Below are positions 5,042 to 31,095 of a DNA stretch of 32,000 nt, one piece after another; within the stretch, counting starts at the first letter, position 1, and every line of letters starts with the position of its first letter. Origin of the DNA: Candidatus Baldrarchaeum yapensis (GTDB taxonomy: Archaea > Asgardarchaeota > Baldrarchaeia > Baldrarchaeales > Baldrarchaeaceae). The notes under the pieces are model-generated. The model did not search any database. It saw only the letters and a program-made list of their open reading frames with translations, and was not told where the DNA came from. A program made the translations under genes and the position numbers. The stretch covers positions 30,001 through 62,000 of the forward strand of contig JAEOSH010000004.1 in the NCBI GenBank assembly GCA_016840465.1, read 5' to 3'.

Positions 5042-6013
5042 TCATTTTTCCTTAAAATACCTGAAAACTTTCTCAACGTTTTCCCGTACAACGCTCCACG
5101 CAAAATCCCTGTCCTTCTCTCTTATTTTGAGTTCTCCAACATCAGGTAGTGTTCCTACATCCTTTCCAGCAAGGGTCGCTACGACCCCGTATATAACAAG
5201 TTTTGCAACGTCCGGATTGGAACCGCCACTCAGAAGTACAACCATCCTCCCACCACAAACTTTTTCCGCAACATCCTTTATTGTGTGACACAATCCGATA
5301 AACCCGTTCACGGTCAGTTCAAACCCGCCATAATCCCTGTGATGAGCGTCATGTCCAAGTTCCCAGAGGATCATTTCTGGCTTGTGTCGTTTGGCAAGTG
5401 GAGGGAGTAGTTCATTAAGAGCCCATACGATTTGCTCGTCGGTTGTATTATGTGGCAGTGGTACGCTGACCGCAGTCTTGCCAAGATCTGGGTCATATGG
5501 ACCTCCGCTGTGAAACTCCAAGAGGAAAACCTCGTCATCGTCCCGATAGATGTCAAAGTTTCCATCGCCAAAATGAGGGTCTGTATCCACAATCATGAAT
5601 CGGCGTGCACTCATCTCGCTCCTCAGGGTTTCTATAAGCACCGCCGCGTTATTTATATAGCAGAAGCCCCAGAAGAAGTCCTTGTTTGCATGGTGCCCGG
5701 CCGCCGCCGTAAAGACGAATGCCGAATCGACTTCTCCCGAATATACGAGTTTTCCGGCAAGCGCCGCTCCGCCTGCTGTTAGCATGGCAATATCGTAATA
5801 TCCCGTCACCGACACCTTTTTCAGGTGGTCTTCAGTATGTATTTTTCTCACGATCTCAGGAGATGCCGGAACTGGTTCGTAGAGGACCACTGACGGGTCA
5901 TTAAGCAGTCCGGTTTCTTTGAGGTACTCAAACGCGGGTCTTAGTCTTCCACGCAGTACCACATGACCCTCCTCGGGGTACCTGTCATTCCATATGACAG
6001 CAACCTTGCCCAT
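5042..6013 (-). CDS. Histone deacetylase / acetylpolyamine amidohydrolase family protein (atypical)
   Basis: AGHHA His dyad, GFCYINN, DTDPHFGDG and GHDAH Zn ligands. The final motif is LSGGS instead of LEGGY. Confidence 0.88.
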   Translation of the reverse strand: MGKVAVIWNDRYPEEGHVVLRGRLRPAFEYLKETGLLNDPSVVLYEPVPASPEIVRKIHTEDHLKKVSVTGYYDIAMLTAGGAALAGKLVYSGEVDSAFVFTAAAGHHANKDFFWGFCYINNAAVLIETLRSEMSARRFMIVDTDPHFGDGNFDIYRDDDEVFLLEFHSGGPYDPDLGKTAVSVPLPHNTTDEQIVWALNELLPPLAKRHKPEMILWELGHDAHHRDYGGFELTVNGFIGLCHTIKDVAEKVCGGRMVVLLSGGSNPDVAKLVIYGVVATLAGKDVGTLPDVGELKIREKDRDFAWSVVRENVEKVFRYFKEK

Positions 6014-10011: not shown

Positions 10012-10168
10012 GTTCATCCCCCTAAGAGAATTTTGTGCCTACGAAAATTTACGGATATCGTATCCGGGTGTGAAGATGATGGCTTTAGGTGGGACTTAAA
10101 TTGTCGAAGGCGATCACGATCGCACATTTTATTTATCATCAGGCCGAATGAGAAGTGGTGTTTTCGAG

Positions 10169-11401
10169 ATGAAGCCTGCGATGATTACTGTATCGTCGGA
10201 TCCGCAGGAAAGGGGGGCACGGACGGTTCACGCAAGGTATGCATCCCTGCTCAGGAAATTCTGCTCGGAAGTTCTTCCTATTGTTACAACTTCCGAGGAA
10301 CTAGAGAAGTTGGAAGATAGATTGAGAAGGCTACCGTTGGTATTTACAGTAGTCGCGACCGGTGGAACCTCAGATCTGATATTGAAAATTGCGGAGTATA
10401 CGAGGGTTGTGATGCTAACACACGGGAAGCAGAACTCCCTCGCATCTGCGTTGAACGCCACCATTCGTCTTAAGCGTAGGGGGATATACACTAAGGTCAT
10501 CCATGAACTATCAACGGATACATTAAGAGAGATCGCGGTGATTTCACAGGCAGCCGACGTTCTTTCTAGAATTAAAGAATTGGAAGTGGTGTTGTTCTGT
10601 GCGCCGGAACAATGGGCCCGAGAAAGATACGGTGTGGAGTTCCTCGAGAGTCTCGGAATGAAACTGACGTTTGTAAACCCCGATGAGTTCATCGAACGGT
10701 ACGAATCTGCTATGGAGAGCATAAAATTGCTAAAGAGGTTTCTGGAAGTTCCTTCGGTTGATGTGACGCAGGAAGACGTATCAAAGGTATCTAAGATTTT
10801 AGCGGCGGTTCTGCAGTACATGCAGGAACATGGCACGATCATTTGTGCCTTCAGATGCTTTCCATTTTTGAAGAAGACAGGAATAACTCCATGTCTTGTG
10901 CTATCGTATCTCCTCGATAGAGGAGTAACCGCAGCATGTGAGGGAGATCTTTCATCCATGCTCATGATGGAGATCCTGCGCCTTCTTTCCGGGAGACCGG
11001 CATTTATGGCAAACATAGAAGATGTAACGGGCAATATGCTTTTTCTGGCACACTGTACTGTTGCGACGACGATCCTCAGAACATACGTTTTAAGGACCCA
11101 TTTCGAGACCGGGTATGGGGTGAGCATAGCTGGGATATTCGATGATAACTTGGAGGTTACCGTCGCGAACTTCTCCCCGGACTTTAAGGAAATGTTCGTA
11201 GGTAGGGGAATAATAAAGGACGGGAAACCGAAATCTGAGGAGTGTTGTCGCACACAGGTGCTCATCGAAATGACAGGAGATCTTCAAACACTTTTGGACG
11301 AACCCGTTAACAGACATCTATGCGTTGCCATCGGTAATTACGAGGCGCATTTGAAGGCTATTGCAGAAATGCTCGGCATAAAAGTGAGAACGCCGAAGTA
11401 A
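10169..11401 (+). CDS. L-fucose/L-arabinose isomerase-like protein
   Basis: ATGGT, AACEGD, LAHCTV, CRTQ and NRHL..AIG motifs of the FucI/AraA-like family; GTGGTG RBS. Confidence 0.7.
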   Translation: MKPAMITVSSDPQERGARTVHARYASLLRKFCSEVLPIVTTSEELEKLEDRLRRLPLVFTVVATGGTSDLILKIAEYTRVVMLTHGKQNSLASALNATIRLKRRGIYTKVIHELSTDTLREIAVISQAADVLSRIKELEVVLFCAPEQWARERYGVEFLESLGMKLTFVNPDEFIERYESAMESIKLLKRFLEVPSVDVTQEDVSKVSKILAAVLQYMQEHGTIICAFRCFPFLKKTGITPCLVLSYLLDRGVTAACEGDLSSMLMMEILRLLSGRPAFMANIEDVTGNMLFLAHCTVATTILRTYVLRTHFETGYGVSIAGIFDDNLEVTVANFSPDFKEMFVGRGIIKDGKPKSEECCRTQVLIEMTGDLQTLLDEPVNRHLCVAIGNYEAHLKAIAEMLGIKVRTPK

Positions 11402-26707: not shown

Positions 26708-26932
26708 TTATGTGTGCCCCGGTGGCTTAGTGGCTAGAGCGCCCGCTTGGTAAGCGGGAGATCCCGGGTTCAAATCCCGGCCGGGGCTCCAAAATTCGTT
26801 CTCGTCCGACAATATTTTCCGCAGCGTCTCCTCGAGCGTGCGCTCCAGCAGCCGCGAGACGTTAAGCCCGAAGTACCGTGCGCGTTCTACCAAATCCGAG
26901 CGGACATAGACTGATACCCACTTCTTTCTCAT
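26708..26932 (-). mobile_element. Probable N-terminal fragment of a split (SSV/pTN3-type) integrase: RHH/CcdA-like domain reading antisense through the tRNA
   Basis: MRKKWVSVYVRSDLVERARYFGLNVSRLLERTLEETLRKIL (RHH-like) runs without a stop into the tRNA antisense strand (WSPGRDLNPGSP...) and ends just beyond the tRNA 5' end. Confidence 0.6.
26716..26791 (+). tRNA. tRNA-Thr(GGT), intronless, CCA encoded
   Basis: Acceptor stem GCCCCGG/CCGGGGC, anticodon arm CCCGC-TTGGTAA-GCGGG, T arm GGTTCAAATCC, discriminator U, then CCA. Confidence 0.97.
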
Positions 26933-27253
26933 ATAATTCTGTGCATGCATATGCATACTTGTGCAGATACCAGTTAAAAATACCGTATGCAGTACGAGAC
27001 GTGGTCAAAGTTCCAAGTGTTCAATCGGTGACGAGATTCTATGCATCTTTTACTAAATCTGAGCAAATTTTTAGCGGAAATCACGTCTTCCGCTTATGCA
27101 TACACAGAACGACATCAAAATACCATTAATTATCATGTATGTGAAGCGGCAACAAGAGTAAATATCGTACGCGGATACTTATATACCGCTCACGTGTCAA
27201 TCAGGTAAAATTATCGGTGAAGTTACCAAGAAACTGGCACAGGTTTCGTAACA

Positions 27254-27277
27254 TTTATAACTTACCTTGGTAAGTTA
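27254..27277 (+). promoter_or_regulatory. TATA-like box followed by a 20-bp palindrome
   Basis: TTTATAA at 27254-27260; TAACTTACC-TT-GGTAAGTTA at 27258-27277 with perfect 9-bp arms, upstream of the ATPase remnant. Confidence 0.5.
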
Positions 27278-27309
27278 CCGAACCGATCAGTAAGCTATAG
27301 CTATATTGA

Positions 27310-28071: not shown

Positions 28072-28191
28072 AAAAAGATAAAAATGGGGCCGTTTTTCTA
28101 AGTCTTCCCGAAGCAATGAGGCTATGGTTTTCGGCATCTCTATCGGAACAAATAAGAGGAAACCCGGATACTTAGGTTGAGAGGGATTCCA

Positions 28192-28717
28192 ATGTATCGC
28201 ATTGAGGTTCAATCTCTTACATTATCTGTCCCGAGAGAGATTATCGAAAAGGCCGAGAGAAAGGGTGTAGATTTAGAGTCATTAATACTAGAGGTGTTGA
28301 TAGAAAAGCTCGATCTTAATCCTGATGATGCTTCAAAAATCCATATTAGTCGAGCAAAGAAGTTTCTAGACGAGGGAAAGGAATTAATAAGTAAGGATTC
28401 CGTGCAGGCCAGTGAAAAGTTGTATAAGGCCGCAGAGGAGTGCGTTAAGGGGCTCACTTATTACTTCAATATCGAAGACGTAATAAACGAGGGAAGGAGG
28501 AGGGGGAGATGGACAGTTTCATTGCTCGAAAAAGCGGTGGAGGAAATTTCAGAGAAGCTGGGTACGTGGTTTCGAAGAAGCGTGGGACAGAGCAAATTAC
28601 CTCCATGCCTGGGGCTTCCACGAGGCAAAACTCGATGTCATTGCGGTGGAGAGAAGAGCACCTTACGTGGAGAAAATGGTAAATGAAGCCCTAAAGATAA
28701 TTTTTGGACCCGCATAA
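28192..28717 (+). pseudogene. PaREP1 family protein with a +1 frameshift
   Basis: DSVQASEKLYKAAEE...GRW in frame 1. After removing one T at 28570-28572 the frame continues FEEAWDRANYLHAWGFHEAKLD... to TAA at 28717. Confidence 0.85.
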
Positions 28718-30303: not shown

Positions 30304-30819
30304 ATGAATGAGCACGGAGGGGCTTCGTTGACAGTAGAGCTGCCCGAGAAAATCTTTAAGGTAATAGCAGAGGAGGCACGTAGAAAGAAGAAGACGATAG
30401 AAGGTGTAATAGTGGAGAGGTTCATAGAGGGTCTCGATCCCAGAGCGAGGGTTGAAGTGTACATGGAGTTGTTCGATAAATACTTGCGAGAGGCGGATGA
30501 GAACTACCAGAGGGGAGATTTGCCACAGACGGGTGAGAAGTACTGGAGAGCCGTGACATCCCTCTTAAACGCAATCGGAGAACTGGAGTCCCTCCCCCAC
30601 TATACCCATAGGGACTATGTCGAAATCGTCGAACATATTGCCGAAAAGTATAGCGACCCCGAAATATCGACCCTTTTCAGACTGGTGGAGGGGCTTCATG
30701 CAAACTTCTATCATAATTTCCTCAGAAAGATGACCTTCGAAAGTCATAGAAGTGGCGTTCTCACTCTCATTAAAAAGCTAGGGTCGGTAATTGAGAATCT
30801 AATGCGGAAAAAACTTTGA
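30304..30819 (+). CDS. PaREP1 family protein with N-terminal RHH-like segment
   Basis: GDLPQTGEKYWRAV and LHANFYH motifs; TTTATATA box at about 30277. Confidence 0.8.
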   Translation: MNEHGGASLTVELPEKIFKVIAEEARRKKKTIEGVIVERFIEGLDPRARVEVYMELFDKYLREADENYQRGDLPQTGEKYWRAVTSLLNAIGELESLPHYTHRDYVEIVEHIAEKYSDPEISTLFRLVEGLHANFYHNFLRKMTFESHRSGVLTLIKKLGSVIENLMRKKL

Positions 30820-30855: not shown

Positions 30856-31095
30856 TCATCCGAAAGAAGTTTTCACAACTTCGAAACTCTCACAGATGCT
30901 AATGCGGCCTTCTCCGCATCGGATGAGTATATGAAGATCTTACCTCTCTTAATTTTATTTTTCAATATCTATTCTTTTTCTCCTCAATACGGTTTTTATG
31001 CTATTAACTAGGATGTTTTCCATTCTCGATCTGACTCTATCGGACTTTAGGGCTATTTCCCCGTATCTGACGATGACGGTGTCGTACACTTTCAT
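30856..31095 (-). pseudogene. thiI: tRNA sulfurtransferase ThiI N-terminal fragment, frameshifted
   Basis: MKVYDTVIVRYGEIALKSDRVRSRMENILVNSI, then TAA after an A run. KRGKIFIY..AEKAA..VRV continues in another frame, and a second shift gives FEVVKTSFG*. No PP-loop domain follows. Confidence 0.8.

Follow-up and report, generated by a model that had tools for sequence, protein, structure and literature searches.

Self-splitting integrases are regarded as an archaeal peculiarity and are known mainly from viruses of the Sulfolobales and plasmids of the Thermococcales. A 2001 study by She and colleagues is said to have described relics of 'gene capture' in Sulfolobus, left by elements of the SSV/pXQ type, in which the Int(N) fragment persists at an archaeal tRNA gene after the element has decayed. 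The Pfam family PF16795 (Phage_integr_3) marks the suicidal SSV, pTN3 and pT26-2 integrase families (Badel et al., PMC8371274). The pTN3 and pT26-2 integrases are plasmid-borne, target tRNA genes and leave non-excisable copies in Thermococcales genomes (PMC7253208; Cossu et al. 2017), and neither of these two sources mentions a ribbon-helix-helix (RHH) domain in them. In the type I integrases of SSV1 and SSV2 (PF16795; PDB 3VCF), attP is contained in the integrase ORF, where it reproduces the 3' part of the tRNA gene in antisense, and integration places Int(N) over the tRNA gene and Int(C) behind the second att copy.

We compared these systems with a short ORF at a tRNA gene of Candidatus Baldrarchaeum yapensis. 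The stretch analysed, hereafter the window, comprises 32,000 nucleotides and corresponds to positions 30001-62000 of an 88,923-bp contig (C89), which belongs to a 2.27-Mb, 100-contig assembly of 96% completeness. The ORF is probably a solo Int(N), the relic of an SSV-type integrase with an RHH domain at its front, and marks an old attL at tRNA-Thr(GGT). Its relatives share with SSV1 and SSV2 both the location of attP and the split into two parts, of which the window displays the Int(N) side; unlike integrated SSV-type elements, the window retains no Int(C) or attR. In contrast to SSV1 and SSV2, the N-terminus of the RHH-fronted integrases is a CcdA-like RHH domain (PF07362), followed by a linker that is modelled with low confidence. 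The combination of RHH and Phage_integr_3 is not listed among the suicidal families in PMC8371274. The hosts also differ, being mainly Bathyarchaeia and other uncultured lineages rather than the Sulfolobales that harbor SSV. Compared with the relics ascribed to Sulfolobus, the window represents a different lineage and an Int(N) of the RHH type.

The only tRNA gene that ARAGORN detects in the window is an intact tRNA-Thr(GGT) with an encoded CCA (26716..26791, plus strand). It is the presumed integration target and would form the attB side of attL. On the opposite strand, an ORF of 82 codons from its first ATG (26956), or of 74 codons from the ATG at 26932, extends to a stop at 26708. The ATG at 26932 is more plausibly the start, as the sequence MRKKWVSVYV suits the strand of an RHH domain. 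In this 74-aa form (26708..26932, minus strand), the Int(N)-like ORF is composed of the RHH domain, an 8-residue spacer and an antisense read-through of the tRNA that stops just beyond the tRNA 5' end. A first-pass annotation, made from the sequence alone, had located the start 141 nt from the tRNA 3' end on the opposite strand and had described the ORF as open across the whole tRNA. Both statements hold, with the ATG at 26932, the tRNA end at 26791 and all 76 nt of tRNA-Thr open in the antisense frame of the ORF. The first 47 residues are encoded outside the tRNA. Starting with the Trp codon at 26791-26789, which is the reverse complement of the encoded CCA, the ORF simply translates the tRNA in antisense (W-S-P-G-R-D-L-N-P-G...). 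Taken alone, the openness across tRNA-Thr is at chance level: one or more antisense frames are open at 29 of the 32 tRNAs in the genome, and open frames account for about 46% of the antisense frames overall.

The RHH DNA-binding domain occupies residues 1-43 (26804..26932, minus strand), as defined by Pfam, an AlphaFold model, fold comparison and alignment with the N-termini of full-length integrases. Within the 82-aa form, the match to Pfam CcdA (PF07362) covers residues 11-48, with an E-value of 1.8e-7 and 31.9 bits, against a cut-off of 22.4. This match spans only positions 1-38 of the 71 in the profile, and positions 39-71, which represent the C-terminal, toxin-binding tail of CcdA, are unmatched. 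AlphaFold models residues 1-43 with a pLDDT of 95 as an extended segment (residues 1-11) and two helices (residues 12-20 and 25-42), which is the RHH layout. The best Foldseek rows for this model are CopG, StnY, ORF56 and RHH antitoxins, with E-values that are weak because the domain is small. The Pfam score, the confident model and the CopG-type folds confirm the earlier identification of the ORF as CcdA/RHH-like. Helix 2 carries the motif GLNVSRLLE, and the RHH subtype of the window ORF is SRLLERTLEETLRK.

The RHH-encoding part has a GC content of 0.54 and a GC3 of 0.72, compared with a GC3 of 0.44-0.63 in six neighboring genes and a GC content of 0.46 for the genome. The GC-rich codons remarked upon in the first-pass annotation are thus real in direction, but they are a weak signal, because only 47 codons are involved and 16% of 141-nt windows are equally GC-rich. 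On its 5' side, the ORF is preceded by an AT-rich non-coding stretch (26957..27309, GC 0.39), which contains a TATA-like TTTTTAA at 26972-26978 on the minus strand and a repeated GCATATGCATAC. Judged from its sequence, this stretch may be the last remnant of element DNA together with the promoter or operator of the ORF. The GCATATGCATAC / GCTTATGCATAC motif is found twice, 145 nt apart, in a 29-nt imperfect inverted repeat around the RHH start (26926-27120). A 9-nt perfect palindrome, TAACTTACC/GGTAAGTTA, is located at 27258-27277. The repeats and the palindrome may be operator sites for the RHH protein and are listed here as candidates.

A HMMER search with the 74-aa ORF against 1.84 billion representatives returned about a dozen small proteins of 69-108 aa. 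The matches align over both parts of the query, with an RHH containing ELGLNISKxCENALKEAIRRL, a variable spacer, and a segment of the type W..GRDLNPRPP... that corresponds to antisense tRNA. We collected the family by a pattern scan for GLN[IV]SKxCEN in one genome per GTDB species, which gave 61 loci. They are mostly from Bathyarchaeia, and others are found in Hadesarchaea, Methanomethylicia, Methanodesulfokora, Thermofilaceae, an Archaeoglobaceae MAG and further lineages; Korarchaeia are among the lineages with integration scars of the family. Two of the 61 loci (L100 and L102) contain an uninterrupted ORF of about 364 aa. The RHH ORF overlaps a tRNA on the opposite strand at 33 loci, is truncated with a tRNA just downstream at 6, and continues as a tRNA-like antisense peptide without an ARAGORN call at 8. 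A short RHH ORF reading into or toward a tRNA is therefore present at 47 of the 61 loci. No tRNA is visible at another 11, and one locus is cut by the contig end. The targets are many different tRNAs, and both open antisense frames are used (RDLNP and GFEP).

The uninterrupted genes reveal what the short ORFs derive from. In L100 and L102 (364 aa), PF07362 at residues 2-43 is followed by a tRNA-like linker and by PF16795 at about residues 188-347. The AlphaFold model of L102 has a pLDDT of 72, and its low-confidence linker (residues 46-86) is the part encoded by the tRNA-like DNA. The best fold match of the L102 catalytic domain is the SSV1 integrase (3vcf_A; Z 12.5, rmsd 3.5 Å, 156/160 residues), with archaeal XerA next. 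The kinship came from this fold search; searching PDB sequences with the integrase profile had yielded no relevant match.

Perfect direct repeats that begin at the tRNA 3' end are found in L068 (45 nt), L082 (47 nt), L083 (44 nt) and L113 (43 nt), where they bound segments of 7.6, 4.3, 5.9 and 6.6 kb, respectively. In each of these loci, an ORF encoding the body of a tyrosine recombinase starts exactly at the distal repeat. Joining the two halves in silico had been proposed in the first-pass annotation as a check. When Int(N) and Int(C) of the four loci are joined at att, the result is an unbroken reading frame for a full integrase (357-376 aa) that is colinear with L100 and L102. The conserved motifs TGLR, (I/L)R and GR are present, as is a Tyr close to the C-terminus. 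On the basis of the full-length genes with PF07362 and PF16795, the SSV1 fold match, the att repeats and the in-frame rejoining, the family consists of type I (SSV-type) integrases with an RHH N-terminal domain. The alternative considered in the first-pass annotation, that the homologues are stand-alone antitoxins lacking a tRNA link, att repeats and Int(C), does not apply, because the homologues are linked to tRNAs and both att repeats and Int(C) are present in related genomes. Solo Int(N) ORFs are frequent, as 12 of the 17 tRNA-adjacent family loci with a full 10-kb flank show no att repeat. The limited literature searched (including PMC8371274 and PMC7253208) makes no mention of an RHH domain, or of these lineages, for suicidal integrases. 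Suicidal integrases combining RHH and Phage_integr_3, with tRNA att sites of 43-47 nt, form a populous family that we did not find described in this limited search.

The window ORF resembles the members of this family in its geometry. It has the same position and strand relation, and its antisense frame (W..RDLNPG) is one used by several members. The GLN motif is 78 nt from the tRNA, compared with 79-141 nt in the family (median 115, from 39 loci overlapping or adjacent to a tRNA), and the length of 74 aa compares with 75-107 aa for the four integrated Int(N) ORFs measured. An HMM of the family RHH, built without the window ORF, has this ORF as its only significant match (E 1.8e-5) among 32,175 six-frame ORFs of the genome. 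The score of 25 bits nevertheless falls in the range of 17-28 bits obtained for stand-alone RHH proteins of the phylum, VapB-like or with a zinc ribbon, that are not near any tRNA. Similarly, the window RHH shares PF07362 with L100 and L102 and is matched by the full integrase profile at positions 1-43, yet stand-alone RHHs score alike. The family motif GLN[IV][ST][KR]xCEN is not present in the window RHH; GLNVSR is common to both, and CEN is absent. CcdA and VapB antitoxins and CopG repressors have the RHH domain in common with the window ORF, as seen from PF07362 and the fold rows, and are not separable from it by sequence score. Sequence alone does not bring the window RHH nearer to the integrase family than to antitoxin-like RHHs, and the assignment of the ORF to the family rests on position, not sequence.

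These scores are also what would be expected under the main rival reading, in which the RHH gene stands alone, as an orphan antitoxin of the CcdA/VapB kind or a small transcription regulator, converges on tRNA-Thr by chance and has its stop beyond an open frame. The high proportion of open antisense tRNA frames, the absence of Int(C) or att from the genome, and a second-closest relative that is a 55-aa RHH without a tRNA point in the same direction. We consider such a gene unlikely on account of its surroundings. Unlike CcdA or VapB, the window ORF has neither a toxin-binding tail nor a toxin gene, and continues as antisense tRNA after the RHH, from which the tRNA is separated by the 8-residue spacer only. 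In the ORF list, no toxin gene is found downstream of the RHH, where the tRNA is followed by a metallo-beta-lactamase (MBL)-fold gene on the other strand. By a rough estimate, about 0.2% of genome positions are convergent to a tRNA 3' end and no more than 150 nt away from it. Since the window RHH is the only gene of the genome with PF07362 above cut-off, and this single gene converges on a tRNA 3' end within 150 nt, its placement is beyond chance. Furthermore, the arrangement recurs in two other genomes of the phylum as well as in the 47 family loci.

The two genomes were identified among 400 of the same phylum, in which two other RHH ORFs read into a tRNA. One of them belongs to the same order (G003:C38) and enters tRNA-Gly(CCC), with aEF-2 on the chromosomal side. 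The other (G118:C95) has a non-CEN RHH that is 44% identical to that of the window, and its tRNA is cut by the contig end and confirmed by Rfam at 46.6 bits. A third strong member in the phylum (G027:C218) has an ORF that runs off the contig. No attR was found in G118 and G003, both of which are incomplete MAGs. The contig of G003 ends some 780 bp from its Int(N); breaks of this kind are frequent at the junctions of mobile elements. Before the contig end, on the element side of this Int(N), lies another small RHH-like ORF of 77 aa (L034, 88-321, minus strand).

The closest relatives of the window RHH are from two short contigs retrieved in a second metagenome scan, the first scan having given none. 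One of them (L128, contig Ga0180301_10091954) encodes an RHH 68% identical to that of the window and ends right after it; the DNA homology to the window is confined to 66 nt inside the RHH. The other (L129/P0007) is the stand-alone 55-aa RHH referred to above, which is 59% identical, has no tRNA and lies beside a DUF5131 gene, among neighbors that look mobile-element-like. Scans of viral contigs for the RHH subtype of the window were empty, and word-index searches for a longer protein with this subtype gave only the window ORF.

The remainder of the putative element was searched for in the contig and in the whole assembly. In agreement with the first-pass annotation, which had seen no second tRNA 3' end and no Int(C) in the window, pattern searches allowing up to 3 mismatches find no second copy of the tRNA-Thr 3' part in the window or in C89, and profile searches of the window find no Int(C). 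Genome-wide searches for the tRNA 3' half, with patterns and with blastn-short of the tRNA and its flanks, return only T-arms of other tRNAs and one 13-mer. The latter, CTCCAAAATTCGT at C89:71619, was rejected as an att copy: it is at chance level (E 6.9) and adjoins an RNA-ligase-like gene, not an integrase. A downstream direct repeat adjoining a tyrosine recombinase, for which the first-pass annotation had recommended a search, occurs neither on C89 nor elsewhere in the assembly. PF00589 and PF16795 each match only a XerA-like gene on contig C7 in the genome, and tblastn with L100 and L102 over the 2.27-Mb assembly does not detect Int(C). The full integrase profile, run against all six-frame ORFs of the genome, finds no catalytic part and has the window ORF (positions 1-43) as its top and only significant match. 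Comparison of the genome with all ORFs of seven verified or candidate family elements likewise reveals no element remains. The downstream minus-strand ORFs of 440, 384, 203 and 135 aa were considered as Int(C) and discarded, as they have no integrase signal in Pfam, NCBIfam or PHROGs.

The contig continues for 32 kb to the right of the tRNA, a stretch that contains no recognizable plasmid or virus gene. The first gene on this side encodes an archaeal ATPase (PF01637; 27310..28071, plus strand), whose domain begins at profile position 1 and lacks the usual C-terminal part. It has no in-frame start: none of the codons ATG, GTG and TTG occurs in this frame from the upstream stop (about 27307) up to 27445. 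From its sequence, it appears to be either a truncated pseudogene or a gene with an unusual start. The ATPase is followed by three PaREP1/HEPN genes and a flavodiiron protein, a thiI fragment and an Lrp gene, and further to the right by an HMA gene, a frameshifted P-type ATPase, saccharopine dehydrogenase, an SPFH protein, an M28 peptidase and others. The three PaREP1/HEPN-family genes lie within 8 kb of the tRNA (28177-28686, 30304-30819 and C89:64046-64558, the last being L018:8046-8558). They are interleaved with damaged genes, namely an N-terminal thiI fragment (30955-31095, minus strand) and the P-type ATPase, which is split at C89:62596-62599 after the HMA gene. In the translations of the first two, an RHH-like N-terminal segment is discernible by eye.

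Such a neighborhood could also be the left part of a complete large element of more than 32 kb, with its Int(C) and attR beyond the end of C89 or in unassembled or unbinned DNA. The lower GC content of the tRNA-proximal 5-8 kb (0.42-0.46), the damaged or island-type genes near the tRNA, from the startless ATPase to the frameshifted P-type ATPase, and the division of the assembly into 100 contigs are in line with this explanation. It is nonetheless very unlikely, given that the verified elements of the family measure only 4.3-7.6 kb, that ordinary cellular genes follow farther on (saccharopine dehydrogenase, SPFH, M28 peptidase and RNA-ligase-like), and that an SSV-type catalytic domain and a second tRNA 3' half are absent from all contigs of the assembly. 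The first-pass annotation had left two options, an element extending beyond the window or an eroded one. Erosion is favored because no att copy or Int(C) is present up to the contig end or anywhere in the assembly and the downstream genes look cellular or decayed. A comparison with empty sites was attempted in the nearest genomes, which belong only to the same order. Their homologues of the flanking MBL-fold gene (31-44% identical) have no tRNA nearby, and the comparison yielded no attB or element boundary.

A genome of the window's order carries a classical unsplit tyrosine integrase, broken into two ORFs, that adjoins tRNA-Ser(TGA) (L052, G003:C68, 153-1354), which implies that at least two kinds of tRNA-targeting element visit the lineage of the window. 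This integrase, and the fact that RHH regulators are common in archaeal mobile elements (PMC6563490), would be compatible with the RHH being a regulator or excisionase-like gene at the edge of an element that used another, unsplit integrase or another insertion mechanism. We regard this as highly improbable, since the RHH is the integrase's own N-terminus in every resolvable case of the family and the genome has no integrase of any type besides the XerA-like gene on C7.

The solo Int(N) relic remains the preferred reading of the window ORF, because searches of the 32 kb up to the contig end and of the 2.27-Mb assembly revealed neither an att copy nor Int(C). A relic is favored over an intact element because the verified family elements are of 4-8 kb and solo junctions are the majority in the family. 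Of the earlier proposal, which saw here the Int(N) half of an SSV-type split integrase at attL, it stands that the idea is true of a large family of related ORFs and that the window ORF shares their geometry, but no element is demonstrated at this locus.

We suggest the following course of events. In the free element, the integrase gene would encode the RHH domain, a linker specified by attP, which would correspond in antisense to the final 43-47 nt of a tRNA gene, and the core-binding and SSV1-like catalytic domains. Recombination of attP with the tRNA gene would rebuild the tRNA and cut the integrase gene in two. The RHH part would stay beside the tRNA, reading through att into the tRNA 5' half to a stop, while the catalytic part would be carried to the opposite end of the element, where it would follow the second att copy. 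For the relatives, this course up to the split is demonstrated. In the window, tRNA-Thr(GGT) would once have received such an element, whose body extended rightward from 26791. By analogy with L068, L082, L083 and L113, the att core would be the 3' 43-47 nt of the tRNA (26745..26791), present here in a single copy, and the full-length gene would read RHH, then ...SDENEFWSPGRDLNPG..., then the PF16795 domain. The element would have been unable to excise, and Int(C), attR and most or all of its genes would later have been deleted. The remnants would be the RHH ORF, about 350 bp of AT-rich upstream DNA and the startless ATPase neighbor. This ATPase, located 350 bp to the right, would fit a deletion that may have taken the element body together with the first codons of the gene, and is a possible deletion scar bounding the relic. 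The intact ORF and the TATA-like box make it conceivable, as a matter of speculation, that the relic may still be made as a small DNA-binding protein.

For the window itself this is a modest result, an old scar and not a live element. The family with the RHH N-terminus has left dozens of integration scars at many different tRNA genes and has members in the order to which the window belongs. Integrated elements or their relics in uncultured archaea can be located simply by short RHH ORFs that enter a tRNA gene in antisense, and a PF07362 match alone is poor ground for calling such ORFs CcdA-type antitoxins. Natural elements of 4-8 kb with defined att sites of 43-47 nt might serve as a basis for genetic tools in lineages still lacking them. 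More tentatively, and with somewhat less than even confidence, we propose that the RHH-fronted suicidal integrases constitute a large undescribed branch of the SSV type across Bathyarchaeia and other uncultured archaea, and that the window relic and the ORF of G003 are the first trace of self-splitting integrases in their lineage. Under this proposal, stranded RHHs, whose ORFs are intact and preceded by promoter-like DNA, may be kept as small DNA-binding proteins. They might recognize the att or arm sites of related elements that enter the cell and so act, for instance, in immunity or as repressors.

One member of the family (L096, CAZQIO010000001.1) comes from a 70-kb contig whose MAG bears the bacterial label Candidatus Saccharibacteria. 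An error of binning or labelling is the probable cause; if real, the case would represent inter-domain transfer. In a Bathyarchaeota element (L094), the att repeat is 35 nt long and 97% identical (5188-5222 and 10162-10196), and sits in the 5' half of tRNA-Val(CAC), which the Int(N) ORF reads in sense; the other resolved cases, unlike L094, all use the tRNA 3' half in antisense. A same-strand tRNA-Val(CAC) is also found in L111. Finally, the linker of the full-length gene on the 3.3-kb contig of the Archaeoglobaceae MAG (L102:2176-2290) contains two tandem T-arm-like segments, which may be two alternative attP sites.
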